From NCBI GenBank assembly GCA_035489575.1, contig DATHJY010000007.1, forward strand, positions 1,047 to 65,046: a stretch of DNA of 64,000 nucleotides, read 5' to 3'. This DNA is from Verrucomicrobiia bacterium. GTDB lineage: Bacteria > Patescibacteriota > Saccharimonadia > Saccharimonadales > JAGQNK01. Positions 5,079 through 63,855 of the stretch are shown here, one piece after another (the first letter of the stretch is position 1; every line of letters begins with the position of its first letter). The notes beneath the pieces are model-generated. The model saw only the letters and a list, made by a program, of their open reading frames with translations. It was not told where the DNA came from and searched no databases. A program made the translations under genes and the position numbers.

Positions 5079-5170
5079 AATCCTTACTATTCTATCATGA
5101 GAAAGTGGGAGTCTTATCAGATATGCCGCTGGTGGTTGACTTTGACAGAGCGCTGTAGTTATGTGAGTGC

Positions 5171-8100
5171 ATGGGAAGCCGCTTGCCCGAAGCTTCCGAT
5201 GATAGTGAAAGAGGTATAGCATATCTGGCGGTTGATGATGTTATACCCGACATGACTTCGGGAGCAATCGAAGTCCCTTTTGCCACTGAGTTCTTCTTGG
5301 AACTGAGCGATGTAGATTCTAATGGCCACGGCTCGGATGATTATGACCCTTATGACGAAACACTTGCTGTCGGGCGTGGACACCGTGAGCTGCCTACCAA
5401 CAGGGATACTGAGTGGGATGACGGAATATCACTTGATAGTCTCCGGCAATTCCGCCAAACAATGGGGTACGACGCCATACCCCAACCCCAGCCCAAACTG
5501 AAACACGATCCAGTAGAGATGCCCGACGAGGAAGAAACAGAGGAAGAAGAGTTATCTGAATTTTTTATTCGTGACCTTCTGGCCAGCGTCGAGCTGCAAA
5601 ACGCCAGGACAGCCCCAAATACCGACATCCCACCCGCTCTTCAGGTAAGCACTGGCGAGCAAACGCTCTCTTATTGGGTTAAAGACCAAAACCCAGGCGA
5701 CCTAACCACAGAAGTCCTGGGAGAGCTATCACTTATTACGATCAGTGCCGTCAAAGATATGCTGGGCATAGCCAGTCATGCCAGGACAAAAACAGCTGAA
5801 TGGCTTATTGAAAATGGTCGCATCCCCAAACCAATTGGTATCGTGCCTTATGGTGACAAAAAACAAGGGCTGCCTGTCTGGAGCAAGCAGCAAATACTTA
5901 TCCCGCACGAAAAAACCATTCCCCAAGAAACTCCGAAAACAGAAAACGAGGCATGGCGGGCCCAGGCTGCCTGTCTGGGTTCTAGCGCCACAGAGTATTT
6001 CTTTGCGGAAAGAGGCGAAAACCAAGAGCCGGCCAAGAGTGTTTGCAGAGGATGTAGTGCACGCCAGGCTTGCCTAGAGTCGGCCCTTGCGCACAAGGAA
6101 AAGCATGGCATATGGGGTGGGACCAACGAACGAGAGCGTCGAGTAATCCGGAGAAGACGGAGCCTAATTGCCAAAAGAGCTGCAGCCGATGGAACGCTCG
6201 ACGGCCTGGACGATCACGACGAGCTCACCCTCAGAGGTCCGCTCGCCCCCGAAGTTCAGGCACTCGTAGACCAGAATCCCGCCCTCGAATCTATTGCTAT
6301 CAGTTTTGAATCGGCCGACCTGGAGGTTCGTGACGATCAGATCCAGGGAGTGCACGCGGTAGAGCAAGCAATAGAATCTGGCAAAGAGCGAGTGTTATAC
6401 CAAATGTATCCTGGTGGCGGCAAGACAAATATGGCGGCAATCATGGCCGACCGTTGGCTGAGCGAAAACCCCGAGAAGCGGGTGCTGTATTTGTGCCATG
6501 ACACACGCTTGCTCAGCCAAGCCCGCGCCCGATTCAAACACATCCTCGGGGACGAAGAGTACACCTATGGCACTTTTACTGGCGAAGAAAAGGACTGGGA
6601 CGATCCCACCTTTATGTTTGCGTCGTTCCAGACAATGCAACAGCAAAACTGGCAAGAATACTTTGCAGACCAAGAGTTCGACCTGGTCATAGTGGACGAA
6701 AGCCATCATTCCAAGGCAGCCACCTACGAAGCTGTGCTGGACCACTTTTTGCCACGCGCCATCAACAGCATAGCTATGAGTGGCACCATCAAGCGTCACG
6801 ACATGAGAGACATCCAAGAAATCTGGGGAGCACCCGTATACTCCAAGACATTTGCCGAAGCCATGGACGAGAAAAGACTGGTATGGCCCGAGTACATCGT
6901 CATGGAGGATCCCGATGAAGAAGAGACCTTTTTGACCGAAGGGATTGACCCCACCAAGCTCAATAGGCGAATCTTTATAGAAGCACGCGATAAGAAAATA
7001 GTTGCTGCCGCCCGCGAGGAAGTCAGAGCGTACGAGCTCAGACACGGCGTGAAGGCAAAGCCGCTGATATTTGATACAACCATTGCCCATGCCGACGTTA
7101 TCGCCCGGCTCTGGTCCGAGGCCGAAGCAGCAGAAAACGGCCAGACAGATATCACCGCCAACGCCGCCCGCACTCTCCACACACGCAGCAAGAACACCCT
7201 AGAAGCGTTCAGGAATAACGAGTTCCCTACGCTGGTTACAGTAAACATGCTGAACGAAGGTATCGACATAACAGACGTAAATGTCATCATTTTCTTGGCC
7301 GCTACCGATTCGGAGCCAAAATATATCCAGCAATTGGCGCGGGGCCTTCGCAAGAAAGCCGGCAAGCCATCGTGTTTAGTCCTGGATTTCCCTAATAACT
7401 GGGGGCATATCATGATGGGTAATCGAGCCGTCAAAGAGATCAAGGCCGGCCGCACACCTGCAACCCAATCAAAACAATGGGCCCAGACCGCCCTCCAGCC
7501 ACGAATGGTGCACCTGGATAATATCTTGTTTACTTTCCAGGCAACACGTGTGGACTTTGTGCAAAGAGTCAAAGAACTAGACAGAGACCCAATGTTACCC
7601 GATGCCATGAGTGTCAAGAAATATGCACGGGATCGCAGCCGCGACTTCAGAACAGTGGTCAGGTATATGCGAATTCTACACATGATCCCCCTCAGCCTAC
7701 CCAATCGCTACGGAGCATACTGGCTGCCGGTAGAGTACCAGCAAGAGCTAGATGCCCAGGCCGGGCTAGCCATTGAGTTTTTCAAACCAGGAGAAATACG
7801 GCTGCCCAAGGCCCTCAAGCAGCTTGGCGTAGGCCAAACAACCGTGGACAAGGCACTGAATGACGGCGACATACGTTTGCCCACGCGAAACTTTGATGAC
7901 GGCGGACCACCCGGACTGGCCGTAGATGAAGCCACCCTGGCGCTACTAGAAGCCAACCCCCGTGTCCAAAAGTACAAAGAGGTAGCTGCCGACGCCAACT
8001 CTCCTCTGGGCGAAGACGAGGAGAGCGTCTACGGCGCCGCACTATCCCTGAACGTGTCCAAGGAAGTTTTCATACACGCGCTTCAGATAGAACTTGGGAT

Positions 8101-8461
8101 ATCCCCCGATGACCTGCTGAACCGCAGCCGTTCTAAGGGCCAGCCATTCCAGGCGGTTAAAAAAGCCCATACGGCCTGGATAACTGGCTCGAAAATAATC
8201 GAGGAGGCCCAACCGGCGCCAACCGGCGCCGTATCGGTACACCAACTAGCAGTCGAGCTGGGCACAGCCGATAAAACACTGAAGGCCAAGGCCGCAGAAC
8301 TGGGTATCTTACCCAAGCGCAGAAAAGGTGCCCGCAACCACTACGATATGTTTTTTGTCGAAGACCTAGAACCCATTCGGGCCCACTCCTATTTCAATAA
8401 AAATGGCAGCAGCAAGTACCGAGGCCGAACAAAGAGAAAGCAGCAAGAATCGGTCACCTAA
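5171..8461 (+). CDS. WhiB-like [4Fe-4S] domain fused to an SF2 (DEAH / type III restriction Res-like) helicase, with a C-terminal tail of repeated HTH-like segments
   Basis: At ~5951-6160: AACLG...VCRGCSARQAC...GIWGG, i.e. C-Xn-C-X2-C-X5-C plus the G[IV]WGG turn. Helicase motif I is PGGGKTN (~6410) and motif II is VDESHH (~6693-6710). Start uncertain. Confidence 0.75.
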   Translation: MGSRLPEASDDSERGIAYLAVDDVIPDMTSGAIEVPFATEFFLELSDVDSNGHGSDDYDPYDETLAVGRGHRELPTNRDTEWDDGISLDSLRQFRQTMGYDAIPQPQPKLKHDPVEMPDEEETEEEELSEFFIRDLLASVELQNARTAPNTDIPPALQVSTGEQTLSYWVKDQNPGDLTTEVLGELSLITISAVKDMLGIASHARTKTAEWLIENGRIPKPIGIVPYGDKKQGLPVWSKQQILIPHEKTIPQETPKTENEAWRAQAACLGSSATEYFFAERGENQEPAKSVCRGCSARQACLESALAHKEKHGIWGGTNERERRVIRRRRSLIAKRAAADGTLDGLDDHDELTLRGPLAPEVQALVDQNPALESIAISFESADLEVRDDQIQGVHAVEQAIESGKERVLYQMYPGGGKTNMAAIMADRWLSENPEKRVLYLCHDTRLLSQARARFKHILGDEEYTYGTFTGEEKDWDDPTFMFASFQTMQQQNWQEYFADQEFDLVIVDESHHSKAATYEAVLDHFLPRAINSIAMSGTIKRHDMRDIQEIWGAPVYSKTFAEAMDEKRLVWPEYIVMEDPDEEETFLTEGIDPTKLNRRIFIEARDKKIVAAAREEVRAYELRHGVKAKPLIFDTTIAHADVIARLWSEAEAAENGQTDITANAARTLHTRSKNTLEAFRNNEFPTLVTVNMLNEGIDITDVNVIIFLAATDSEPKYIQQLARGLRKKAGKPSCLVLDFPNNWGHIMMGNRAVKEIKAGRTPATQSKQWAQTALQPRMVHLDNILFTFQATRVDFVQRVKELDRDPMLPDAMSVKKYARDRSRDFRTVVRYMRILHMIPLSLPNRYGAYWLPVEYQQELDAQAGLAIEFFKPGEIRLPKALKQLGVGQTTVDKALNDGDIRLPTRNFDDGGPPGLAVDEATLALLEANPRVQKYKEVAADANSPLGEDEESVYGAALSLNVSKEVFIHALQIELGISPDDLLNRSRSKGQPFQAVKKAHTAWITGSKIIEEAQPAPTGAVSVHQLAVELGTADKTLKAKAAELGILPKRRKGARNHYDMFFVEDLEPIRAHSYFNKNGSSKYRGRTKRKQQESVT

Positions 8462-8901
8462 AGGTACTCTTCTTTTGGCTCGACGGGAGTCACGCGCCCC
8501 TGGCTAAATCCACCATAGTGTTTGTCGGGCTTCTTGTATGGATTATGTGATCGTCGCTGCTGACGCTGTTCTGCCATTCGCCGCTCATAGATAGCCCGTC
8601 CATCTTGGACAATCATGCCCTTCGCCTCGGCTGCCTGGGGCAACCAGAGCATGCCGATAAAGGCTGCGTTGCCGAGCCGCACAATGGCAGGTGTCCAGCG
8701 CACAATAGCTACGTGCGGATCTTGCTCTTGCTCTTCTGGCGGAAGTGCCTCGTGGTAGGCGCGTACCTCCTGCTTAAAAGCTGTGTTGATTCTGCTCAGA
8801 TTGCCCGTAGCGGGGACCTCAATCTCTAGGCGAGTTCTGTCTTCTTCATCAATAGGAATTTCGTAGGCAATCAGTCCGTTAAGTATGGACTGTCCTTCCA
8901 T
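8458..8901 (-). CDS. hypothetical protein
   Basis: 147-aa ORF immediately downstream of alaS on the same strand, with backbone-like composition. Confidence 0.5.
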   Translation of the reverse strand: MEGQSILNGLIAYEIPIDEEDRTRLEIEVPATGNLSRINTAFKQEVRAYHEALPPEEQEQDPHVAIVRWTPAIVRLGNAAFIGMLWLPQAAEAKGMIVQDGRAIYERRMAEQRQQRRSHNPYKKPDKHYGGFSQGRVTPVEPKEEYL

Positions 8902-8904
8902 AAC

Positions 8905-10797
8905 CTAAGCCAGGACTGCCTTAATTCGGCGTACACCTGCGCTACTGGCTTCTTCTTTGGTGATTTTGAATTTCTTGCCGTCTTCAAAGAGTTGGAGCGT
9001 GTGGTCGACGTGGGGACCACCACAGATCTCAAAGCTAAAGGGTTTGTCTGCGCCGTCAGCAATCATCTTGTATACCTTGACCGTGTCACCGTAGCGGTCG
9101 CCAAACTGGCCCAAGGCGCCCTTTTCTTCACGCGCGACTTTTGTCGGGTATTCTTCCCAAGATACTTTGAGGTCTTTGGCGATCTGCTCGTTCACGATTT
9201 TCTCTACTTGGTCCAGCTGTTCCCGTGTTACTTTTTCGGGATGGCTAAAGTCAAAACGTAGGCGCTCTTCGGTAATATTGCTGCCGCGCTGAATGACATG
9301 ATCACCCAATACTTCGCGTAAGGCCTGGTACATCAGGTGCGTGGCGGTGTGGTATTTCTTGTGCTGCAGGGTTTGTCCGCCCAGGCCACCCTTGAAGGTG
9401 CCTTTGGCGGCCGTCTGTGAACGCTCGCGCTGTTCTTTCATTTTGGCGTCAAACTCTTTCTGCCACTCAGCAGAGACTTCGATACCCTGCATGGCCGCCT
9501 CTTCTACACTGAGCTCTAATGGAAAGCCGTAGGTATCATAGAGCGTAAAGATATGGCTGCCATCAAGCTTGCCAGCGCCGCCCATTTTTTGCAGTTCTTT
9601 TACGCCCTTGCGAAGGGTTTGGCGAAAGACCTTTTCTTCGCGAACCAGTATATCAACCACTTCCTGGCGCTTTTCGGCTACTTCTGGGAAGTCCTCGTGA
9701 TACAGATCGGCAATAGCGGGTACGATTTGTTCCAGGAAGTTCTGTTCGATACCCAGGTCAAAGGCAAAGCGGATAGCGCGACGCATCAGGCGACGCATAA
9801 CGTAGCCCTGCTCTTTATTGCTGGGCACCACACCGTCTACGGCCAGGAAAGTCGCGCTCCGCAAGTGATCTGCAATCACACGCATGCTGGTTGTGTGGCT
9901 ATCGTATTTTTTGCCAGACAGCTCTTCCAGCCGCTGCACAATTGGCCACATGATACTGATCTTGAACATATCGGGGCTATTAATAGCCGCCATGGCGATA
10001 CGCTCCAAGCCACCGCCAAAGTCGATGTTTTTCTTGGGCAGCTTTTCAAATCCTTGCTCGGTACGCCGATACTCCATGAGTACGTTGTTACCGATTTCTA
10101 CAAACCTGCCGCAATCGCAGTTGGGGTGACATTTTTCACCATATTCGGGATTGTGATCTACAAAATCAAACTCATAAAATATTTCGGTCGAGGGACCGCC
10201 CGGCTCACCCGGGGGCATGTCACTAATTTTGCCATTCCGGCACCACCAATTTTTGGCAGCATCATAAGCAAAGATACGCTGGCCAGGCTGCATGCCAGTT
10301 GCCGCGGCGTTTTCCTCGGACCCTAGGTCGGCCTCGGTGGCGTCGATGCCCTTAGCCTGGAATAGTTTTTTCCAGATGTCGGCAGACTCGGTGTCTTTAG
10401 GAATAGAAAACTCTTCACTACCAATAAAAGTAGTTACATAGAGTTTCTGCGGATCTAGCCCCACCACATCTGTGTAGAATTCAAAAATCCAAGGTAATTG
10501 CTCGGCCTTAAAATAATCCCCGAGTGACCAGTTGCCCAGCATCTCGAAGAAAGTATCGTGACGATTATCACCCACTTCTTCTATGTCTTGTACGCGAATA
10601 ACAGTTTGGCTGTCTACCAGTTTGGTGCCCTGTGGGTGCTCCTCGCCCAACAAATACGGGACCAGCGGCTGCATGCCGGAGCCCGTGAATAATGTAGTTG
10701 GGTCGTTTTGTGGCACCAGAAGTGCCCGCGGAATAACGGCGTGACCGCGTTCTTTGAAGAATTCAAGGTAGGCTTTTCTGATTTCTTGGGCATTCAT
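8905..10797 (-). CDS. alaS: alanine--tRNA ligase, short form (catalytic, tRNA-binding and editing domains; no C-Ala domain)
   Basis: MNAQEIRKAYLEFFKERGHAVIP...FTGSGMQP N-terminus and the HTATHLM editing motif; ends GGPHV...GVRRIKAVLA. Start at 10797; the track ORF extension to 11337 is antisense to a GC-rich ORF. Confidence 0.9.
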   Translation of the reverse strand: MNAQEIRKAYLEFFKERGHAVIPRALLVPQNDPTTLFTGSGMQPLVPYLLGEEHPQGTKLVDSQTVIRVQDIEEVGDNRHDTFFEMLGNWSLGDYFKAEQLPWIFEFYTDVVGLDPQKLYVTTFIGSEEFSIPKDTESADIWKKLFQAKGIDATEADLGSEENAAATGMQPGQRIFAYDAAKNWWCRNGKISDMPPGEPGGPSTEIFYEFDFVDHNPEYGEKCHPNCDCGRFVEIGNNVLMEYRRTEQGFEKLPKKNIDFGGGLERIAMAAINSPDMFKISIMWPIVQRLEELSGKKYDSHTTSMRVIADHLRSATFLAVDGVVPSNKEQGYVMRRLMRRAIRFAFDLGIEQNFLEQIVPAIADLYHEDFPEVAEKRQEVVDILVREEKVFRQTLRKGVKELQKMGGAGKLDGSHIFTLYDTYGFPLELSVEEAAMQGIEVSAEWQKEFDAKMKEQRERSQTAAKGTFKGGLGGQTLQHKKYHTATHLMYQALREVLGDHVIQRGSNITEERLRFDFSHPEKVTREQLDQVEKIVNEQIAKDLKVSWEEYPTKVAREEKGALGQFGDRYGDTVKVYKMIADGADKPFSFEICGGPHVDHTLQLFEDGKKFKITKEEASSAGVRRIKAVLA

Positions 10798-15858: not shown

Positions 15859-16311
15859 ATGAAAGAAGGCGTCAAGAACTTCCTCCGTACCCTCTACAAC
15901 ACCCTCCGCACCATGCTCGACTCCACCCAGACCGAGGGCACTTCCGACCCCGAGCCCAGGCCCAACATTCCGGTTTACCGTGGCGCCCGTTGCTGCATCA
16001 GCATCGACGTGTTCGACGGCGACGAAGAACTGACGCGTCGGGCCGAGGCTTTCCTGGCCGCACTGGCCACGCATGACCTAGCCCTGGTGAACTACATAGA
16101 CCACTTCCCCGGAGGGATTCGTGTGTTCATCCGCCCCTTCCCGGGCGAGCACGATCTGGTAGTCAAGTACTACAAGCGCGGCAATTGTCTGGACCGTCGA
16201 GCCGCGACCTACCTGACCATCCTGGTCGAGGAGTTCTTCCGCGCCGACAACGTCGACGGACTGGCGATCGAACTCAGCAAGACAAGCTCCATCCCCGCAC
16301 ACATCCGCTAG
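15859..16311 (+). CDS. cassette C4a: GC3-rich hypothetical protein
   Basis: GGAGG SD at 15848-15852 precedes the ATG at 15859. An alternative in-frame ATG lies at 15829; the track start at 15754 falls inside the leader hairpin. Confidence 0.65.
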   Translation: MKEGVKNFLRTLYNTLRTMLDSTQTEGTSDPEPRPNIPVYRGARCCISIDVFDGDEELTRRAEAFLAALATHDLALVNYIDHFPGGIRVFIRPFPGEHDLVVKYYKRGNCLDRRAATYLTILVEEFFRADNVDGLAIELSKTSSIPAHIR

Positions 16312-16346
16312 TGCCGCGACACTCATTACAGACTGGAGATACCAGC

Positions 16347-16817
16347 ATGCTGGTTTCTGTCCTGAGCTTCCTGACTTGCTTCAAGGTGGAACACCTGGTC
16401 GATGAGTTCAGGAGACGGTTCGCCCCCGACCCCGAGCTCAACGTCATGGACAGCACCGCCCTCATTGGCATCGTGATCAGCTTCACCGCCGACCAGGAAA
16501 AGTGGCGCTGGCAAAGTGCCAGGCACGCAGTGCTACACCACTGCATCCGCCTACGCCGGATACACGAGGACATCCACTCCTTCCTGGAGCGCTTCGAAGA
16601 CTGCATCGGGAGTCGACCCGAGCTAGTGACGGACTACCGAGGCCACGAGCTGCGGACATGGTTCGACTGTAAGGGCGACACCGGGCTCTCCATGGCCGCC
16701 GCGGACTATCTGCTGCGAGTACTCGCCATGGTGGACGCCACCGACAAGCAACTCCGGAACGCTCTGCGCATCACCGAACTCCCCCAGGATGCCGCCATAG
16801 TGGCATCCGCGTCGTAA
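16347..16817 (+). CDS. cassette C4b: GC3-rich hypothetical protein (156 aa), second gene of the C4 unit
   Basis: GGAGA SD 7 nt upstream of the ATG, 35 nt after the C4a stop. Paralog-like to C3. Confidence 0.7.
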   Translation: MLVSVLSFLTCFKVEHLVDEFRRRFAPDPELNVMDSTALIGIVISFTADQEKWRWQSARHAVLHHCIRLRRIHEDIHSFLERFEDCIGSRPELVTDYRGHELRTWFDCKGDTGLSMAAADYLLRVLAMVDATDKQLRNALRITELPQDAAIVASAS

Positions 16818-16979
16818 CCGTAGCCCTCATGGGCCAAGCAGCAGGGCTGGACGAAGGCTCAGGATGTTGCTGGCTGATGCCGGTATCTCCCCCTTTGTCC
16901 AGTTCCTGTCTGCTTGTTTTACTTTTTATGCCACGCCCCTGTGGGCTTTTTTTATACCACCGCATAAGAAGGGGCAGGA

Positions 16980-17008
16980 TTGAATTTTATTAACTTTTAT
17001 GCTATAAA
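16980..17008 (+). promoter_or_regulatory. sigma70-type promoter of cassette C5
   Basis: TTGAAT (16980-16985), 17 nt, then TGcTATAAA (17003-17008). Confidence 0.45.
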
Positions 17009-17037
17009 ATTGATATAACGTACTCGCTTACTCCCTG

Positions 17038-19296
17038 ATGAGAAAGCTTTTTTTGTTTGCACCTTCCACTGAAGTGGACCGACAAAGGATCACGCACTTG
17101 AGGATCATCCACTCAAAGCAAAGTTTGCCCACCGAAATTGTCGGCCAGAAGTGCAACGGCTCCCTGTTCCTGGGAGGCGCACTGCCGCGGTCCGACAAGA
17201 TCAACCAGGAGCCTGCCCACTGGCGATCCGACGCCTACCGCTTTCTGGCCGAAAGGTTCGACGGCACCGTCCTGACACCCGAACGCCAAGAGGGCAGCCT
17301 GGCCTCCTACGTCAGCCAAGCCGACTGGGAGCAGGCTGCGCAGAACAGCGCAGACGTCATCTTCTACTACATGACCCGAACGGCCGACATCCTGGCCCTC
17401 AGCACCAACACCGAGGTTGGCCAGTACATCCGGTTCGGCCCCCAGCGTGTCGTGCTGTGTATTCCCGAGAACGCCGATTTGGCGATGAAGACCGAGTTCC
17501 AACAAACCGTTGCCAAAATGCAGGGCATCGAGCCGATCATCGGCCTCGAAGCCGGCCTGGAGCATGCCATCAGCCTGATCGGCGAAGGCGCCGAGCGACA
17601 TGGTGGCGAGTGCCAGGTACCCCTGTACGTATGGCGTACGCCCAGCTTCCAAGCCTGGAACAACGCCCTCAAGGCCGCCGGCAACCGGCTGGACAACTTC
17701 CACCTGGACATGACCCTCTGCCCCGTGCCAGCCTTTGTGCTGTTCTGGGCGGCAAAGGTCAGTATCTGGGTAGCCGGCGAGGAGCGTCACAAGGACAACG
17801 AGTGGGTCATTTCCCGCCCTGACATCTCGCACTGTGTGCTCGTATACCGCAAGGGACCGAAGACACACATAGTGGGTGTGCGGGAGTTTCGCAGCACTGT
17901 CCGCAACGCGGATGGCTACGTCTACGAAGCAGCGGGCGGCAGCTCTGCCAAACCCAGCCTGGACCCCATCCAGGTGGCGATCGACGAAGTTCGGGAAGAA
18001 ACCGGCCTACGGCTCCGCCCCGCGCAACTTCGCTTTGTGGCTTCCCGCCAGCTTGCAGCCACCACCACGGCACACCACGCCTACGTGACGGTTGCCGAGC
18101 TAACGGACGAGCAGTACCAGCAAGCGCTGGCCCAAGAGGGCACCTACGCCGGCGACCTGGCCGACAGCGAAATGACCGCTCTGACCGTGTCGACACTCAC
18201 CGAGCTGTTCGCCGGCGAAGAGCTGGACTGGTCCAACCTGGGCATGACCGCACAAGCGTTGCTCCAACTGGACGCCGAGCACAAGCCCAAGTACACCGTG
18301 GCCAGTTCGGCCGGCCAGACGTACGCCCTTGTCATATTGGACGCACTGACCGGCTCGGCCCTGGACACCATCCTGGGCATCATGGCCGCCGGGACCACCG
18401 TGGTCTATGCCGGACCCCAGCAGGGCAACCTCGGCTTCGAGCAACGCGTGGACATTGCGACCACACTTGGCTTGTTTGCTGACAAGCTGACCCAGCAGGG
18501 CATCGACGCCCAGTTCATCCACCTGGCCGGAGACGGCGAGGACCAGCTGAGGCGTTTGCAGGCACTGGTGGAGCCGGACAACCTGACCGTCTTCGCCTTC
18601 GTGGGCGACTACGGACTGAGTCCGGACGCAATCCGACAGGTCCAGCTGATGCGCCACCGTGGCGTCTCGGTCGTGGGCAGCTGGTGTGGCAGTACGCCGC
18701 AACCAGAGCTGTTGGTCGTGAATGGCTCGTTAGCCGCACCCGACATCGGGTATGTACCTTTTGCCAGGCAGTGGTCGCAGTCCGGCAGCGAAGTACAGAT
18801 CTGCACACCGCAGGACTGTGCCGTAGTGTCAGTCGGTCGGCTCACGCCAGCCGCCTACTACCGGTTGGCCGGATTGTTGATCGCCGGGACGCACCTCATC
18901 TACGGAGGAGCACCCGTCGACCAAGAAGCCCCCGAGGGCCGTATCCACCTGACTCGTTCGCTGAGACTGATGGCTGCCAAGCTTGGTGTTGCCGGCATCC
19001 CCGCCCGCGTCACCACGTTCGAGGAGCCAGACGTCGAGAGTCGTCGTCTGAAGTTGCTCGCGCTCGCGCAGCAACACTGCGCCCCGGTTCTGGCCTTTGT
19101 CGATGACCAAGGCTTGGCACCTGGCGTAGCCCAAGAATGTGCGTGGGCGCGCGACTGCGGCCTGCCGGTTACCGGCCTGTGGGTCGGATCGTCCGGGGGG
19201 TTCGAGCTCAGAACTCTGGGCGATGCCCTGGACGTGAACGAGGCCTCACTTCAGCCATTGGCGCAGATGCGTCAGCCAGGCCTGGTCCTGGCGTAA
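17038..19296 (+). CDS. cassette C5: GC-rich multidomain protein with a nucleoside 2-deoxyribosyltransferase-like domain, a Nudix domain and two Rossmann-like (SLOG/DUF2493-like?) repeats
   Basis: Nudix box GGSSAKPSLDPIQVAIDEVREETG (~17931-18006). The N-terminal LFLGGAL...ADVIFYYM...STNTEVGQY pattern resembles NDT/Rcl-type folds. Two similar ~140-aa C-terminal repeats each end in V(V/T)G(S/L)W. The true start is probably downstream of 17038, because the first ~20 codons are AT-rich leader. Confidence 0.65.
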   Translation: MRKLFLFAPSTEVDRQRITHLRIIHSKQSLPTEIVGQKCNGSLFLGGALPRSDKINQEPAHWRSDAYRFLAERFDGTVLTPERQEGSLASYVSQADWEQAAQNSADVIFYYMTRTADILALSTNTEVGQYIRFGPQRVVLCIPENADLAMKTEFQQTVAKMQGIEPIIGLEAGLEHAISLIGEGAERHGGECQVPLYVWRTPSFQAWNNALKAAGNRLDNFHLDMTLCPVPAFVLFWAAKVSIWVAGEERHKDNEWVISRPDISHCVLVYRKGPKTHIVGVREFRSTVRNADGYVYEAAGGSSAKPSLDPIQVAIDEVREETGLRLRPAQLRFVASRQLAATTTAHHAYVTVAELTDEQYQQALAQEGTYAGDLADSEMTALTVSTLTELFAGEELDWSNLGMTAQALLQLDAEHKPKYTVASSAGQTYALVILDALTGSALDTILGIMAAGTTVVYAGPQQGNLGFEQRVDIATTLGLFADKLTQQGIDAQFIHLAGDGEDQLRRLQALVEPDNLTVFAFVGDYGLSPDAIRQVQLMRHRGVSVVGSWCGSTPQPELLVVNGSLAAPDIGYVPFARQWSQSGSEVQICTPQDCAVVSVGRLTPAAYYRLAGLLIAGTHLIYGGAPVDQEAPEGRIHLTRSLRLMAAKLGVAGIPARVTTFEEPDVESRRLKLLALAQQHCAPVLAFVDDQGLAPGVAQECAWARDCGLPVTGLWVGSSGGFELRTLGDALDVNEASLQPLAQMRQPGLVLA

Positions 19297-19369
19297 ACGC
19301 GTTTGACGCAATCACCCGAGAGGGGGTCTTTTCGGGTCAAACCGATCTGACCTCCTCACGGGTAAATTT

Positions 19370-20425
19370 TTATACTACGATACCGCCGCCAAGCACTGTG
19401 TCTTTATCATAAATAACGGCGGACTGACCTGGAGTAATGGCCCGCACTTGCTCGTCCAAAATCAACCGTATACCCGTATCTGCCTGCTCAATTGTGCATG
19501 ACACCAATGGCGCTCGATAGCGCGTGCGCACTTGATACTTCTTATCCAAGTTTGGTTGGCCGTTTATCCAGTGCACATCTGTCAGGGCTAGCTCTTGCTT
19601 CCACAAGTTCTCATCATTCAGGTTGGTGGTCACATACACCTCGTTCTTGGCCATGTCTTTGCCGGTGACATAGTACGGCAAGCCACCACCCACGTTCAGG
19701 CCGTGGCGCTGGCCAATGGTGTAAAAAATAGCGCCGTCATGCTCGCCAATGGCTACACCATGCTGCTCTTTTATAACGCCCAGTTCGGTAGTGACATACT
19801 GGCTCAGAAAATCACGGATGCCGACCTTACCCACAAAACAAATGCCCTGGCTGTCTTTTTTCTCGGCCGTGGTCAGACCCAGCTTTTTGGCCAGTGCCCG
19901 TACCTCGGCCTTGGTTTTGTAGTCGCCAATGGGCATCAGGCTTTTTTTGAGCGCGTCCTCCGTAACTCGACATAAGAAATATGTCTGATCTTTTTCGGCA
20001 TTGGCCGCCACCAATAATTGCCCGTCTTGTATCCGAGCGTAGTGGCCTGTGGCAATCAAGTCTGCACCGTCTGCTAGGGCGGTGTCGAGGAACAACCTGA
20101 ACTTGACCTCTTGGTTACACATGATGTCTGGGTTGGGCGTACGGCCAGCCTGGTATTCGGCAATCATGTAGTCTACGACTTTTTGCTGGTACTCGACCTG
20201 GAAGTCGTACATCTTAAAGTCTATGCCCAGCTGCACCGCCACGCGCTTGGCGTCCTGGTAGTCTTCTTTCCACGGACAGGGCATACCGGGCAGGTCTTTG
20301 CTCCAGTTTTTCATGTACACGCCCACCACGTGGTAGCCCTGTTCTTTCAGCAAAGCAGCAGTAACGGAGCTATCTACTCCGCCACTCAATCCCACATAAA
20401 CAGTCTGCTTTTTCTGGGGCTTCAT
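19370..20425 (-). CDS. mnmA: tRNA 2-thiouridine(34) synthase MnmA
   Basis: VYVGLSGGVDSSV PP-loop with a full-length MnmA-like body. Confidence 0.9.
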   Translation of the reverse strand: MKPQKKQTVYVGLSGGVDSSVTAALLKEQGYHVVGVYMKNWSKDLPGMPCPWKEDYQDAKRVAVQLGIDFKMYDFQVEYQQKVVDYMIAEYQAGRTPNPDIMCNQEVKFRLFLDTALADGADLIATGHYARIQDGQLLVAANAEKDQTYFLCRVTEDALKKSLMPIGDYKTKAEVRALAKKLGLTTAEKKDSQGICFVGKVGIRDFLSQYVTTELGVIKEQHGVAIGEHDGAIFYTIGQRHGLNVGGGLPYYVTGKDMAKNEVYVTTNLNDENLWKQELALTDVHWINGQPNLDKKYQVRTRYRAPLVSCTIEQADTGIRLILDEQVRAITPGQSAVIYDKDTVLGGGIVV

Positions 20426-45319: not shown

Positions 45320-47230
45320 GTGACCCTGGAAAAATCAGCCGATAGCAACTATATACGCGTAGCAACTGCCTGCCCCGAGGTAGCCCTAACCGACGTTGCC
45401 ACTAACACGCAGCATATCAAGGACCTCTATAGCGATGCTATCGACGCAGATGCTGCTCTGGTGGTCTTTCCAGAGATGTCGGTAACTGGTTATTCCATCG
45501 GTGACCTAGTCCAAAATAATCAGCTTTTGGCCAACGCCCGAACTGGATTGACGCAGTTGGCCGAGGCCACCGCCAATAAGCCGACCGCCATGGTAGTCGG
45601 TCTACCCCTGGCAGTCGGCAGCGCTATCTATAACTGTGCGGCTGTTTTAGCAGATGGCCAGGTTAAGGGCATCGTCCCCAAGTCCAACATGCCCACTTAT
45701 GGCGAATTTTATGAAAAACGCTGGTTCCAAGCCTGGGATCAGCCAAATATAGAGGTGGAAGTAGCCGGAAAAGCAGTTCCCTTTGGTACTGATTTGCTGC
45801 TTGACATCAATGGCACCAAGGTTGGCGTGGAAATCTGTGAAGATTTGTGGGTTGCCGATCCGCCCAGCCGCAAACTGGCCGAAAATGGCGCCCACATCAT
45901 AGCCAACCCCTCCGCTTCGCCGGAGCTGATCGGCAAGGCTGATTATCGCCGACAACTCGTAGCCCAACAGTCAGCCCGGCTGGTAATGGCCTACCTATAC
46001 GCCGGCTGCGACCCGTCCGAGTCGACCATGGACATTGTCATGAGCGGTCACCAGTTGATTGCCGAAAGCGGCCGCATTGTGGCCGAACGCACGCCACTAT
46101 CAGACGAAAGCCGGCTGCAAATTGCCGACATAGACATTCAACACCTGGAGCACGACAAGCGCAAAGACACCAATACTGTGGTAAAAACAGGGGCGCAGAT
46201 CATCCGCTGTGGTATAGATCCCAACCGTTTCACCCCTGATCTCAAGCTCAATAAATATCCATTTTTGCCCCCAGAAGACAGTGCCGAGCGCGAGCAACGA
46301 TTGGACCGTGTCATTGCCATTCAGGCCACTGGTCTGGCGCAGCGCGCCAAAAGTAGCCACCAGGAACGAGTTGTCCTGGGGCTGTCAGGGGGACTGGATT
46401 CCACCCTGGCGTTGCTGGTGGCCGTAGAGGCAGCCAAGCGCCTTGGCAAGGAACCAAAAGATTTTATCCATACCATCACCATGCCTGGCGAGGCCAGTTC
46501 TGACCGTACCCAAAGCAACGCCGTCAAACTGGCACAGAGTCTGGGCGTACCTAACACCCAAATCCCTATCGGCAAGCTCAGCCAGGAACAGCTTTTGGCC
46601 CTCGGCCACGATGGTGAAACGCAAGATATCACTTACGAAAATGTCCAAGCCCGCCTGCGCACCAGCATTTTGTTTAATTACGCCAATAAAGCAGGCGGCA
46701 TGGTGCTAGGAACAGGCGACCTAAGTGAAATTGCCCAAGGGTGGTGCACCTACAATGGCGACCACATGAGCCACTACAACGTCAACGCCAGTATTCCTAA
46801 AACACTCGTGCGACATCTGGTCGCTCATCTGACCACCAAGCCATCACACGAAACAAGCAAAACTACCCTAGAAGACATTCTGCAGACACCCGTATCGCCA
46901 GAGCTGGTAAGCGCGCAGCCAGGCCAAATCAGCCAAGAGACCGAAGCAATCATCGGCCCCTACGCCCTGACCGACTTCTTCCTGTATTACCTCATCCGCT
47001 GGGGTGATGCGCCCAACAAAATCCAGTTCCTAGCCGAGCAAGCGTTTAAAGACGATTACTCACCAGAGGAAATCAGTAAGTGGCTCGGTTCATTCCTCAA
47101 GCGCTTCACCCAGAACCAATTTAAACGCTCAGCCATGCCCGACGGACCAAAGGTGGGCTCAGTAGCCCTCAGTCCCCGTGGTGACTGGCGCATGCCGTCT
47201 GATATTCCCTCTACAGCCTTGTGGTCCTAA
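45320..47230 (+). CDS. nadE: glutamine-dependent NAD+ synthetase (nitrilase-like domain plus NadE domain)
   Basis: The N-terminal CN-hydrolase domain includes GVEICEDLW (catalytic Cys). The C-terminal domain has LGLSGGLDS (PP-loop). Confidence 0.9.
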   Translation: MTLEKSADSNYIRVATACPEVALTDVATNTQHIKDLYSDAIDADAALVVFPEMSVTGYSIGDLVQNNQLLANARTGLTQLAEATANKPTAMVVGLPLAVGSAIYNCAAVLADGQVKGIVPKSNMPTYGEFYEKRWFQAWDQPNIEVEVAGKAVPFGTDLLLDINGTKVGVEICEDLWVADPPSRKLAENGAHIIANPSASPELIGKADYRRQLVAQQSARLVMAYLYAGCDPSESTMDIVMSGHQLIAESGRIVAERTPLSDESRLQIADIDIQHLEHDKRKDTNTVVKTGAQIIRCGIDPNRFTPDLKLNKYPFLPPEDSAEREQRLDRVIAIQATGLAQRAKSSHQERVVLGLSGGLDSTLALLVAVEAAKRLGKEPKDFIHTITMPGEASSDRTQSNAVKLAQSLGVPNTQIPIGKLSQEQLLALGHDGETQDITYENVQARLRTSILFNYANKAGGMVLGTGDLSEIAQGWCTYNGDHMSHYNVNASIPKTLVRHLVAHLTTKPSHETSKTTLEDILQTPVSPELVSAQPGQISQETEAIIGPYALTDFFLYYLIRWGDAPNKIQFLAEQAFKDDYSPEEISKWLGSFLKRFTQNQFKRSAMPDGPKVGSVALSPRGDWRMPSDIPSTALWS

Positions 47231-60498: not shown

Positions 60499-62256
60499 TT
60501 AAGCGGCGATTGGCCCCATGGTGTCGGACGTTCGCCAGCGATGGTCACCTTGGTACATACCCTTCGTGGCTCGGTTGTAGTGCATGTAGGTCCTAAAGCC
60601 GGCATACAATGTAGAGAACTCACGGTAGTTGTGAGTAAAGCGCAAGACGTCAATCTGGCGAGCCATGTCAGCTTTTAGACCACGGTCGATAGATAGTTGA
60701 GTCATACGCACCGCCCACGCTTCTGAATTATGAGCGTCCTCGACAAAGCCTGACCGTCCCGGAATAACTTGCAGCGGCATGCCACCCCTCGCAGCTACAA
60801 TGACCGCCTTGTTGTGCCAGATCCACTCCGAAACGCGGTTCTCGAACCCTTCACGCCTGGACGGCTGCAGACCGAACTCGGCCTCGTGCATCAGGACATT
60901 GATAGCCAGGTCGTCATGAGGAACGCGTACTACCTTTATATCGTCCTTGAAGGCTTGGTACTTAGTGGCGCGGGCATGCATGACCAACGCCAACATGTCA
61001 TCACCGTCAGGGTCGTCAATAGACCCATTGCCAGCAATAACTAACGGCCTGATCTGGTCTTTTTTACCCTGGGCAATCATGATCTCTCTGTACCGAGCAT
61101 AGTGTTCGAGGATAGAAGGATTGCCGTCTATATCTACCAGATTTTTGGCCGCATCAAAACGGGCCACAACCGCCATAAATGGTCGATCCCAATCCATCTC
61201 GGCCTGTGTCCAATCCTCGCGGTCCCAGTCTGTGGATGCCGGTATAACATCTGGTCTTCTTTCTGGTTTGCGCTGTTCACTGGTCTTAAGCTGGTCGTCC
61301 CAAAAATCGCGTTTTGCCATCCCCTCTTGCTCGGTAATTCTGCGGTTTAGGTCGTCACCCGCTTCAAAGGGTGCAGGCGCAAAACCCAAGGACGCTTCGG
61401 GGACAACGTCGGGCACAAAAGAGTCTACGGGATGAAAAAGATGCACCTGAGCACGCTCGGCCTTGCCCTCCCAAAAATACTTCCAAATCTGGTGCTGGAT
61501 GGTGTTTGAGTCGGCCACAAGTTCGCGCCTGTTTTCGATATGACTCTGCCATATAGTGGGCATGCCGGGAGGCAAGAAATCGTACAGGCCATGTGGTTGC
61601 GGATCGTGCAAATACGCCAGGTCTACCTGGGCCAGCGAATTCCGCAGAGCTGGCTCTACCTCATCACGAATCCAAGCTTCATACACAGTGATACCAGCCC
61701 GAAATTCCCCACGAGTCATCTCCGGCACGGCAACTCCCTGGCTGTTGTTGTGCCAGTCTTTGGTCACCCTAAAAGCAGTCTCGCTCTCCGGCATCAGCGG
61801 CCATCGTTCGTCTACGCCCAGGTCACGGGACAAAGGCACACGGTTCATCAACCAGTACTGCACCCCGCCACCATTGGCCGTAGGATTTACATTACCAACG
61901 ATCAATCCACGTGACTGGTCGGCTTCGGCCGCCACCCGCTCCAAGTCCCTGACTGCCCATGGTCCGATTTCTTCAGCAAAACGTACTCGGTCAGCAAAAG
62001 TTATATCGCTCTGCACGATAACCTCGCGCGTCTGAGTATCCAGTAATTTACGAGTGACATCTGTTGGATGAGAATAAGACACATAACGATCCGGATCGCC
62101 CGGATCAGGCACAGTGGTAGGCAGTGCTACCTGGCCCACTCTGGTAATAACGTCTTCTGCAGACACCAGGACACTGTTGGCAGCCTCCGTGCTTGCATGA
62201 TCCCCGCTGTCTCCACTAGCAAATCTTTCGCCGGTTTCGGCATCTGGTATTGTCAT
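60499..62256 (-). CDS. GT-B glycosyltransferase, trehalose synthase (TreT)-like
   Basis: C-terminal EGFENRVSEWIWHNKAVIVAARGGMPLQVIPGRSGFV matches the GT4 E-x7-E region. Adjacent to the trehalase gene. Confidence 0.55.
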   Translation of the reverse strand: MTIPDAETGERFASGDSGDHASTEAANSVLVSAEDVITRVGQVALPTTVPDPGDPDRYVSYSHPTDVTRKLLDTQTREVIVQSDITFADRVRFAEEIGPWAVRDLERVAAEADQSRGLIVGNVNPTANGGGVQYWLMNRVPLSRDLGVDERWPLMPESETAFRVTKDWHNNSQGVAVPEMTRGEFRAGITVYEAWIRDEVEPALRNSLAQVDLAYLHDPQPHGLYDFLPPGMPTIWQSHIENRRELVADSNTIQHQIWKYFWEGKAERAQVHLFHPVDSFVPDVVPEASLGFAPAPFEAGDDLNRRITEQEGMAKRDFWDDQLKTSEQRKPERRPDVIPASTDWDREDWTQAEMDWDRPFMAVVARFDAAKNLVDIDGNPSILEHYARYREIMIAQGKKDQIRPLVIAGNGSIDDPDGDDMLALVMHARATKYQAFKDDIKVVRVPHDDLAINVLMHEAEFGLQPSRREGFENRVSEWIWHNKAVIVAARGGMPLQVIPGRSGFVEDAHNSEAWAVRMTQLSIDRGLKADMARQIDVLRFTHNYREFSTLYAGFRTYMHYNRATKGMYQGDHRWRTSDTMGPIAA

Positions 62257-62414
62257 TTTATTCTTTCGTTAGAACGTTAAGAGCTTTAAAACCACAAAAA
62301 TGCGCAAACTGGTTATTAAAATAAAAGCCCCCTTGCCCAAAAGGACGGTGAGCTTACAAAGACAAAAAGCTTGTGTTATTCCTCCACAAGTATGATACAC
62401 CCAATTACATAAGC

Positions 62415-62597
62415 TTAGTCTGTAAAATTGGTGCTAGACAAATGCCACAAACTGCAATGCTGGCAGTGGTAGACCCTTACGCGCGTACCGTGCTGCCACT
62501 CGGTCACCGTGGCGGTCGCCTCGGCTTGTTCCTTGGTATCAAAAGCCAGCTTGTCTGCACATGGCAGACTACTGCTTTGACTCTGGTCCGATTCCAT
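62415..62597 (-). CDS. small Cys-containing (zinc-ribbon-like?) protein
   Basis: MESDQS...CADKLAFDTKEQAE...YHCQHCSLWHL. Overlaps the trehalase 3' end by 29 nt. Confidence 0.35.
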   Translation of the reverse strand: MESDQSQSSSLPCADKLAFDTKEQAEATATVTEWQHGTRVRVYHCQHCSLWHLSSTNFTD

Positions 62598-63855
62598 CAA
62601 TATAATCTTTACAAAAGCGCTCAAAAACAGCGTTAGTCCAGCCAAAGCCTGTTTGTGATGGATAGAGTCCCTTCACGGGTGGCTTGTCAGGAGACACAAC
62701 ATTGTACTTCTCCAAAAATACGCCGTGTTCTTTGTACCAATCTAGGTTGGTTTTGATCCATTTTGTAGCAATGCGCTTGGCATCTTCGTGGTAGCCATAG
62801 CGCTCCAACCCCTGCACCACAACCAGGTGCAATGGAGCCCAGCCATTCGGATAAGCCCACTGAGTGGGCACGGTGGGTATACCAGGCACTCGCTTGGCTA
62901 GTTGCGCCACATCAGTAGTCGCCAGGCCACCCTTGTTCTCGAACCGCTTTAGGGCTTTGACCAACTGTTCGGCTTCTTTTTTGGTGACCATACCGGCCCA
63001 CATAGGAAAATAGGTAGCCAATGAGCTGACCGCACCACGTTTTTCTTTCTTAAAATCATAGTCATAATACAAACCCTTGAGCTTGCTCCACATCAGCCCG
63101 TCCATAACCCGCTTGCGATACTTGGCGGCATCCTGCCATTTGGTTACTTGGTCTTTTTTGCCAATCAATTCGTAATACTTGGCAAAATCCATTTCGTATT
63201 TATACAGCAGGGCGTTCAGATCTACAGGCACAAAGTGGAGAGCCTTGCGTCCAAAACGTGGCGTCATGTCCCAGCCGCTCTCGGCCTCGGCGATATCATG
63301 CAGATAATTAAAGTCGTAGTAACGGCTGAGGCCCTTGTATACCTGGCGAGCATGCGGCTTGCGCGTGCCCATCCATACGGTGTGATATTCGGCCTCGGCA
63401 ACTTTGAGCATTTTGCCCAGCCACTTCTTGTCCATGTTGTAGGCCTCGTAGACGTCCCAAATAAAGCTGCTCAAAAACGGTGGCTGCGAGCGGCTAGTCA
63501 GATACAGGCGGGAGGCGTTGGGAATAATCTTGAACCGCTGGAATAAATAGACCAGGTCTTCGAGGATACCCAGCACCAGGTCTTTGTGCTCGGCGTCTAG
63601 CATGCCCTGCACCATAAAGTAGCTGTCCCAATAGTACAGCTCGTTATAGTCAAACTCGTGACCTTCTTCGTACGATGGCACCAGAAACGGCTTGGGCAGA
63701 CCCACTAGACTTTCGTCGTCTTTGGGGTGATAGCGCTCCACTTTGTGCCAGTAACTGTGAATGTGATCCAGCGCCGGCAGCACGTCTTTGGCGGTTATGT
63801 TGTGGTCGCGCTTCAGCGGACCAAATTTTAATAATTTATCAGTAATACTAATCAT
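62569..63855 (-). CDS. alpha,alpha-trehalase (GH37)
   Basis: GH37 signature-like segments: RSQPPFLSSF, DLNALLYKYE and QWAYPNGWAPL. Confidence 0.8.
   Translation of the reverse strand: MISITDKLLKFGPLKRDHNITAKDVLPALDHIHSYWHKVERYHPKDDESLVGLPKPFLVPSYEEGHEFDYNELYYWDSYFMVQGMLDAEHKDLVLGILEDLVYLFQRFKIIPNASRLYLTSRSQPPFLSSFIWDVYEAYNMDKKWLGKMLKVAEAEYHTVWMGTRKPHARQVYKGLSRYYDFNYLHDIAEAESGWDMTPRFGRKALHFVPVDLNALLYKYEMDFAKYYELIGKKDQVTKWQDAAKYRKRVMDGLMWSKLKGLYYDYDFKKEKRGAVSSLATYFPMWAGMVTKKEAEQLVKALKRFENKGGLATTDVAQLAKRVPGIPTVPTQWAYPNGWAPLHLVVVQGLERYGYHEDAKRIATKWIKTNLDWYKEHGVFLEKYNVVSPDKPPVKGLYPSQTGFGWTNAVFERFCKDYIDGIGPESKQ

Follow-up and report, generated by a model that had tools for sequence, protein, structure and literature searches.

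The 64-kb stretch of DNA analysed here (64,000 nucleotides of contig DATHJY010000007.1, referred to below as the window) carries on its forward strand, at positions 5171-8461, a gene encoding a chimeric DNA-transaction protein, in which a bona fide WhiB-like (Wbl) domain is joined to a superfamily 2 (SF2) motor and four predicted winged-helix repeats. The gene is a single open frame of 1096 codons with no internal stop or frameshift, and two orthologues, P0002 and P0003, carry the same layout in one open reading frame (ORF), in agreement with the sequence-only reading of this DNA, which had taken the stretch for one gene and not two. ATG 5171 was assigned as the start on the basis of the N-terminus MGSR-PEAS, common to the window protein, P0002 and P0003. 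The start annotated at NCBI lies four codons downstream, and the product there (identical NCBI protein HTE57716.1) is named "DEAD/DEAH box helicase family protein". The gene and its three principal parts (positions in the window; aa, amino acid residues) are as follows.

5171..8461, + strand: whole Wbl-helicase-winged helix-turn-helix fusion gene, 1096 aa, stop codon counted in the coordinates; one ORF with three Pfam domains in frame
5942..6181, + strand: Wbl domain, aa 258-337, identified by Pfam Whib, PDB 8dy7_H and phrog_472; predicted [4Fe-4S] binder
6320..7405, + strand: SF2 helicase/translocase core, aa 384-745, identified by ResIII, Helicase_C, phrog_16, 7clg and Foldseek; predicted local distance difference test score (pLDDT) >90
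7592..8395, + strand: four putative winged-helix (MerR/excisionase-like) repeats of ~60 aa each, aa 808-1075, assigned from a repeat hidden Markov model (HMM), AlphaFold and Foldseek

The Pfam Whib model (PF02467) matched aa 262-324 over profile positions 1-63 of 65 with 66.3 bits (E 3.5e-18), almost three-fold its cut-off of 23.6, so that the Cys pattern from which a Wbl domain had been called indeed scored against the family model. The full signature described in that reading was located as well, with candidate ligands C268, C292, C295 and C301 spaced C-X23-C-X2-C-X5-C (nucleotides 5972-6073), the GIWGG turn at aa 313-317 and the basic stretch RERRVIRRRR at aa 321-330; the whole 1096-aa protein contains six Cys residues, four of which are those of the signature. 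Comparison with PDB sequences placed the segment closest to Streptomyces venezuelae WhiB (8dy7_H, 59.8 bits), followed by WhiB4, WhiB3, WhiB1 and WhiB7, and phrog_472 (WhiB) matched the domain with 80 bits. An AlphaFold2 model of the fusion protein, built with 74 sequences (mean pLDDT 71), gave aa 258-340 as four helices and a turn in the Wbl layout, with helix 320-340 following the turn (pLDDT 60-83).

In WhiB1, the aromatic patch AP1-4, formed by W3, F17, F18 and W60, adjoins the cluster (PMC13013590). All four residues have equivalents at the same spacing in the window protein (W262, F277, F278 and W315), W262 standing six residues before the first Cys as in WhiB1. In a three-way alignment of the window protein with its two orthologues, the four Cys, W262, F277, F278 and G313-T318 (including W315) are invariant. 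Sigma-A region 4 is bound through this patch and the sigma residues H516/P517 by the tested Mycobacterium tuberculosis Wbls and by three tested actinophage Wbls (PMC13013590; PMC6954389), and apo or nitrosylated Wbls can bind DNA directly through basic C-terminal residues (PMC6954389). The window domain thus resembles the canonical Wbls (WhiB/WhiB2, WhiB1, WhiB3, WhiB4 and WhiB7) in its C-X2-C-X5-C spacing, its G[I/V]WGG turn, its AP1-4 equivalents and its basic C-terminal helix, and cluster and sigma binding are predicted from this likeness. The canonical Wbls, by contrast, are stand-alone proteins of ~80-130 aa, and a 2026 paper confines them to Actinobacteria and actinophages (PMC13013590); the window domain lies inside a 1096-aa protein, encoded by a genome whose alanyl-tRNA synthetase (AlaRS) and gene order match those of Saccharibacteria/Saccharimonadales. 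We therefore call the product a Wbl-domain protein and not a canonical Wbl; that the domain senses redox state is inferred, by analogy, from its family membership.

Motor, putative winged-helix repeats and remaining parts

The motor was matched by Pfam ResIII (aa 384-542, 99 bits) and Helicase_C (aa 627-728, 43 bits). Both helicase motifs named in the sequence-only reading were recovered, motif I as PGGGKTN (414-420) and motif II as DESHH (509-513), together with a III-like MSGT (536-539) and a VI-like QQLARGLR (720-727). The phage family phrog_16 matched the core with 195 bits, the best PDB sequence match was 7clg (SauUSI, E 4e-29), and the modelled aa 384-745 form a two-lobe motor (pLDDT >90) whose Foldseek neighbours are RadD, SauUSI, HsdR, LlaBIII and XPB (best E 1.5e-17). 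The motor is accordingly of the RadD/SauUSI/HsdR/XPB kind, the solved relatives of which include known double-stranded-DNA translocases.

With SauUSI/DUF3427-type and HsdR-type SF2 motors the protein shares its best core sequence match (7clg, and PADLOC mREase_IV at 99 bits) and a similar fold. Unlike those enzymes, it is without a PLD or other nuclease, a target-recognition domain, or methyltransferase and specificity partners, the motor alone being shared. Indeed, the PADLOC alignment spans profile positions 238-561 of 953, which is motor core only; no nuclease domain was found by Pfam in the fusion protein, and no methyltransferase or specificity gene nearby. RadD and XPB/Rad25 are the top structural neighbours of the motor and match it weakly in sequence. 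However, the scores lie far below the NCBIfam cut-offs (RadD 74 bits against 720, XPB 17.5 against 610; RapA and Mfd are likewise weak) and the flanking domains differ, with neither the zinc-finger/C-terminal domains of RadD nor the damage-recognition and thumb elements of XPB detected in the window protein.

A repeat HMM, iterated starting from repeat 4, located four repeats at about aa 811-870, 874-929, 948-1010 and 1016-1072, matching the window protein at E 2e-15 and 5e-6, plus two weak copies. The repeat consensus, APEGWVSVSQLAKELGISRKTLRKLIEELGIEPTRYRFGGRVARGLSPEQQEQIREH, scored just under the Pfam cut-offs with HTH_29 (27.4 bits), HTH_17 (26.3) and MerR (22). In the AlphaFold model, aa 796-1076 comprise four beta-helix-helix-beta-beta-helix units, and Foldseek of the C-terminal model gave weak PDB matches (E >= 0.02) to MerR-family regulators, DdrC-N, RacA and the RdfS excisionase. 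The long C-terminal repeat region proposed from the sequence thus stands, as evidenced in both the HMM and the model. The individual helix-turn-helix (HTH)-like examples given for it fared unevenly, since aa 882-896 and 1023-1045 fall inside the repeats, whereas aa 191-212 have no HMM match and lie in a region modelled with low confidence.

The remaining parts of the gene and its borders are as follows.

5171..5929, + strand: N-terminal acidic region, aa 1-253, predicted disordered and specific to a narrow clade; pLDDT mostly <50
6182..6319, + strand: linker between Wbl domain and motor, aa 338-383, partly helical and variable among relatives
8414..8440, + strand: basic C-terminal tail KYRGRTKRK, kept in the three orthologues; low pLDDT
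5079..5170, no strand assigned: presumed promoter region, a divergent intergenic stretch of 92 bp that separates an ftsA-like gene from the fusion gene
8458..8901, - strand: co-inserted ORF of 147 aa that begins 4 bp past alaS and runs convergently towards the fusion gene, their ends overlapping by 4 bp

The first 250 residues hold 48 Asp plus Glu against 21 Lys plus Arg. Pfam returned no match for aa 1-253, and this N-terminal region is conserved only in P0002 and P0003. A TTGACT/TTGACA pair was read by eye ~25-35 bp upstream of the fusion-gene ATG, and scans for promoter-consensus and terminator sequences around the gene gave matches not above chance. No tRNA gene, and no Rfam family at the gathering threshold, was found within the 64-kb window.

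Host lineage and the alaS-ftsA insertion site

The metagenome-assembled contig is labelled Verrucomicrobiae bacterium at NCBI, which is probably a binning or naming error. At 630 aa, the AlaRS encoded in the window is short, and Pfam detects nothing beyond tRNA_SAD in it. Hundreds of relatives share 75-84% identity with it; apart from the window's own protein, the one among the matches listed that bears an organism name is Candidatus Saccharimonadales. Compared with GTDB species representatives, its matches at 59-73% identity were mostly Candidatus Saccharibacteria, Saccharimonadales and Saccharimonas aalborgensis, with a few generic labels and two partial Rhodococcus matches, and most other Patescibacteria-type loci gave 45-54%. 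The flanking yceG, ruvX, 547-aa ORF and ftsA-like gene are syntenic with Saccharibacteria genomes. Since both AlaRS and local gene order match Saccharibacteria/Saccharimonadales, the host was assigned to the Saccharibacteria (TM7).

The alaS gene itself (8905-10797, - strand) drew a separate observation. Its catalytic region (aa 1-465) shares 62-63% identity with AlaRS of Rhodococcoides/Rhodococcus (L040, L050 and L083), as against 57-69% with many other Saccharibacteria and 42-53% with most other Patescibacteria-type loci. This may reflect an old alaS exchange between Saccharibacteria and Actinobacteria, as judged from identities whose sampling is biased by the peptide patterns of the scan.

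About 25 Saccharibacteria species representatives show the order alaS, ftsA-like gene, 547-aa ORF, ruvX and yceG on a single strand, with an alaS-ftsA gap of ~90-250 bp in twelve loci (L005, L012, L013, L015, L016, L018, L020, L023, L025, L027, L029 and L082). The corresponding gap in the window (5079-8904) measures 3.8 kb and holds the fusion gene, on the opposite strand, together with the 147-aa ORF. None of the 80 fetched loci has either gene, at this site or elsewhere up to 10 kb from alaS. Other cargo was found in this gap at L008 (11920-18477), L010 (11908-15185) and L019 (11896-19235), comprising an AsnB-like gene, an ABC transporter with a sigma-70 region 4 domain protein, and fn3/GDPD and beta-propeller proteins. 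The window and the contigs of P0002 and P0003 all retain the fusion at this position, and the 147-aa ORF, which has no match in Pfam, PADLOC or PHROGs, adjoins it in all three. The alaS-ftsA gap is thus a variable insertion spot in Saccharibacteria, and the fusion is clade-specific cargo there. The description of the fusion as a backbone gene has to be given up on this point, as it is absent from the gap of sister genomes and represents a clade-specific insertion into a conserved cluster. The backbone-like codon usage noted from the sequence holds: the gene has a GC content of 52.9% and a GC content at third codon positions (GC3) of 56.8%, within the 54-63% GC3 of most checked neighbours, and the Wbl segment by itself has a GC3 of 52%. 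The composition of the fusion gene is ameliorated to that of its host.

Two further observations concern the rest of the window. A 752-aa ORF at 17038-19296 (+ strand), with an N-terminal nucleoside 2-deoxyribosyltransferase-like domain, has a GC content of 62.9% and a GC3 of 77%, against a background of ~50-55% and ~54-63%, and the 4 kb from 16001 to 20000 stand at 59-60% GC; this ORF may be a more recent foreign acquisition, to judge by its composition. The window also encodes a trehalose synthase-like glycosyltransferase, a trehalase and a glutamine-dependent NAD synthetase (60499-63855, - strand; 45320-47230, + strand), a metabolism richer than usually expected for a reduced Patescibacteria genome.

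Relatives and origin of the fusion

An indexed search of 5.8 billion proteins identified the two orthologues, P0002 (from Logan, 74% identity) and P0003 (from JGI, 58%), each one ORF with the same five-Pfam architecture. A 254-kb contig also carries a 1096-aa member of the same cluster with an identical product. By the Nei-Gojobori method, the window gene and the L001 orthologue gave a ratio of nonsynonymous to synonymous substitution rates (dN/dS) of ~0.14 overall, and by region of 0.25 for the N-terminus, 0.12 for the Wbl domain, 0.08 for the helicase core and 0.15 for the C-terminus, values that are approximate because dS is ~1.06 and near saturation. All parts of the fusion protein are under purifying selection. 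A profile scan of 185,579 species representatives with the three-orthologue alignment returned no relative, an absence that is weak evidence because two narrow peptide patterns were used.

An exhaustive HMMER search of 1.84 billion cluster representatives returned 433 relatives at E <= 1e-30, nearly all of them motor-only alignments. Among the best 150 of these 433, four further N-terminal Wbl fusions were found, P0019, P0041 and P0042 (Whib 57-63 bits) and P0048 (33 bits), all with the order Wbl, motor, repeats seen in the window protein. P0019, P0041 and P0042 keep the four Cys and the aromatic patch (WxxxAxC, F-Y, GVWGG). P0019 and P0042 lie among housekeeping genes on small-genome-like contigs of ~50% GC, each followed by a class-I tRNA synthetase gene, P0019 downstream of rpsK-rpsD-rpoA-rplQ-rplM-rpsI. 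Ribosomal proteins of these two distant fusion loci (L003 and L004) find their best matches in other Patescibacteria-like loci, at ~50% identity. The fusion family comprises at least five clusters at 50% identity; it is small but deep, and the capture is not private to this genome.

A neighbour-joining (NJ) tree of the motor core separates the seven fused proteins, as a single clade, from 65 unfused relatives. This single clade favours one old fusion and suggests, provisionally given the long branches, that it lies behind all seven Wbl-helicase proteins. Two independent fusions had been suspected, as the window Wbl domain is 34-38% identical to those of P0019, P0041 and P0042, less than to actinobacterial Wbls (54-57%), and the helicase had higher identity to unfused proteins; this possibility was set aside because the NJ tree groups the fused proteins.

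The window Wbl domain shares 54-57% identity with Rhodococcus plasmid Wbls and 49% with the WhiB of Gordonia phage Asapag, and nearly all Wbl matches among the plasmids and phages searched are actinobacterial. Those Saccharibacteria that have been cultivated live as epibionts on Actinobacteria (PMC12369343). An actinobacterial or mobile source is plausible in view of these identities, of S. venezuelae WhiB as the best-scoring match among solved structures and of such epibionts among the Saccharibacteria, and an ancient capture from an actinobacterium, or from one of its plasmids or phages, is the most likely origin of the Wbl module. Of the capture proposed in the sequence-only reading, a genuine Wbl, a non-actinobacterial genome, an ameliorated composition and a plausible source were borne out, whereas the direction of transfer and the donor are inferred. 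No phage donor of the fusion as a whole was found among 50,697 phage genomes, as no record has WhiB and helicase in one place. An alignment of the seven fusions, scanned against metagenomes and IMG/VR, returned distant helicase-only loci at 22-33% identity with no Wbl nearby, and none of the 66 IMG/VR helicase loci had a Wbl gene near the helicase.

A word-index search with the Wbl domain only, in which four candidates were scored, returned two stand-alone Wbls, P0006 and P0007, the first of them sharing 57% identity with the window Wbl domain. The locus of P0006, L002, carries two tandem Wbl-like ORFs (1657-2259) on a 25-kb contig of 43.6% GC, among rpiB, fmt, tatD, dcd, thyA and folA, and could belong to a low-GC actinobacterium or a member of the Patescibacteria. 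No claim of stand-alone Wbls in Saccharibacteria is therefore made.

Unfused proteins with an SF2 motor and a winged-helix array (P0008-P0018 and others, from metagenomes) share 39-42% motor identity and the same repeat family with the window protein and are likewise accessory genes, but they are without the Wbl domain and the long acidic N-terminus and fall into separate clades of the helicase tree. The repeat HMM found 4-9 copies in the closest relatives, and more distant ones have HNH_repeat arrays in place of the winged-helix array. For two unfused relatives among those with 39-41% identity in the core, the helicases P0008 (L085) and P0011 (L170/L171), the operon, on unrelated contigs, also holds a sigma-70-family gene and is conserved, in the order p305/319, sigma, (p363/370), helicase; the two sigma proteins are 38% and the two helicases 41% identical. 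At L085 5902-13304 and L170/L171 2764-9207, this module consists of a ~310-aa protein, a sigma-70-family factor (~381 aa), a ~365-aa protein and an SF2 helicase with 7-9 repeats, and at L085 it is followed by a large serine recombinase. It could represent a mobile or regulatory module not described before.

The sigma-like proteins found in the window and the fetched loci were one alternative sigma factor and small proteins whose N-terminus resembles sigma-70 region 4. Two proteins of ~350 aa in Candidatus Saccharibacteria (L058 1018-2091 and L060 5868-6902) combine such an N-terminus (…GITRERVRQIE…) with a long unrelated C-terminal domain.

A possible sigma-tethered translocase and its alternatives

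It is possible, and we propose it tentatively, that the fusion protein acts as an Fe-S-gated, sigma-tethered DNA translocase combined with a transcription factor or DNA-binding protein; the steps beyond domain identity are conjectural. This reading is favoured because the patch residues are kept with their spacing and because sigma-70 genes occur in the operons of two unfused relatives. A [4Fe-4S] cluster would be held by C268, C292, C295 and C301, and the patch W262, F277, F278 and W315 would dock on a sigma-70-type region 4 in RNA polymerase holoenzyme, as in the studied Wbls. The winged-helix array and the basic stretches may anchor the protein on DNA, while the ATP-driven motor would remodel or translocate DNA, or displace proteins, at or near promoters. 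O2 or nitric oxide (NO) would switch the sigma contact off through loss or nitrosylation of the cluster. RapA/HepA, Mfd and the XPB of TFIIH offer an analogy for the proposed mode only, as DNA motors working on the transcription machinery. Homology to these motors stops at the generic SF2 core. The tether proposed here is a contact between Wbl and sigma, and we know of no helicase tethered in this way.

Several observations weigh against this proposal. The Wbl part of the model is moderately confident (pLDDT 60-83), and the winged-helix assignment comes from weak Foldseek matches (E >= 0.02) and sub-threshold Pfam matches to a consensus sequence. A sigma neighbour is present in two of four unfused relatives with readable upstream sequence and absent in L172 and L174, and a primary sigma factor, in which the His-Pro pair could be sought, was not found in the window or the fetched loci. 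Unfused relatives also adjoin serine recombinases, so that the family may be mobile-element cargo with another role.

The protein could instead be a RadD/XPB-type repair or recombination helicase in which the Wbl domain, making no sigma contact, would be an accessory with an Fe-S or DNA-binding function for sensing redox state or DNA. Fe-S clusters are found in helicase-type proteins such as XPD, DinG and AddB. The closest solved folds are RadD and XPB, the former also scoring 74 bits in NCBIfam, ruvX is among the neighbours, and the basic C-terminal residues with which apo or nitrosylated Wbls can contact DNA (PMC6954389) are present as RERRVIRRRR. However, all NCBIfam repair-helicase scores are far below their cut-offs, the two operon-linked unfused relatives stand beside sigma-factor genes and not repair genes, and the invariant residues other than Cys are those of the sigma-binding aromatic patch (PMC13013590), although the same residues also stabilise the cluster. 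We regard a repair role as unlikely, if still deserving of attention.

The gene may also be a domesticated mobile-element remnant or an anti-phage or anti-plasmid defence gene, in which a phage, island or restriction-like helicase was combined with a phage-style Wbl regulator as accessory cargo. Different cargo in the same gap of other Saccharibacteria would fit such an origin, as would the serine recombinases beside unfused relatives (in one case Fic and PLD genes), the phage families that score best for core and Wbl domain (phrog_16, at 195 bits, and phrog_472), and PADLOC matches to Type IV (SauUSI-like), Type I and PbeA helicase cores. Yet these PADLOC matches are confined to the core, and neither the protein nor its immediate neighbours supply a nuclease, methyltransferase, recombinase or other defence partner. 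The fusion's site is kept under purifying selection across orthologues at 58-74% identity, P0019 and P0042 sit among housekeeping genes, and the phage genome and IMG/VR counts given above (0 of 50,697 and 0 of 66) speak against it as well. We consider this explanation rather improbable.

An effector role, in which the protein, or just its Wbl part, would pass from the epibiont into an actinobacterial host and the Wbl domain would hijack the host sigma-A, as is thought for actinophage WhiBs, appears very improbable. Such a role would suit the epibiotic life of cultivated Saccharibacteria on Actinobacteria (PMC12369343), a Wbl domain as near to actinobacterial Wbls (54-57%) as to any found, the full sigma-A-type patch and the otherwise unexplained long, disordered, acidic N-terminus. 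Against it, a 1096-aa helicase is unlikely cargo, its neighbours are housekeeping genes, nothing links the gene to a secretion system, and no recognised signal peptide or secretion-associated domain was seen, a signal-peptide predictor not having been run. An assembly chimera, or a sequencing error that fuses two genes, to which the sole pointer is the NCBI taxon label at odds with the gene content, is negligible and effectively refuted by the same one-ORF architecture in independent NCBI, Logan and JGI assemblies, the identical product on a 254-kb contig, the conserved flanking gene order and four more distant fusions.

In its wider form, the proposal of a sigma-tethered, Fe-S-gated translocase would place Wbl function beyond Actinobacteria: a module from the actinobacterial pool would have been wired to a motor by a lineage of ultra-small bacteria with epibionts of Actinobacteria among them, giving a new class of translocase at promoters, a functional analogue of TFIIH XPB, and in its boldest form acting on the sigma-A of the host. 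We put this forward as a doubtful extension of the tentative reading above.

Both modules come from known families, and we rate as new the occurrence of a Wbl domain in a new phylum and the new architecture. In the literature searched, neither Wbls in Saccharibacteria, Patescibacteria or TM7 nor a Wbl-helicase fusion is described, although domain-architecture databases may already list the combination. In Actinobacteria, Wbl proteins have central roles in regulating development, stress response, virulence and antibiotic resistance. A conserved Wbl in a lineage with actinobacterial epibionts would be tangible evidence that genes have flowed out of the actinobacterial pool, and it may offer a natural experiment on a Wbl outside its usual format, in which a motor is brought to RNA polymerase or put under Fe-S (O2/NO) control. 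If the sigma contact is true, this would be, to our knowledge, the first helicase recruited via a Wbl-sigma interface, and it would provide a handle on transcription control in Patescibacteria, where that control is almost unstudied.

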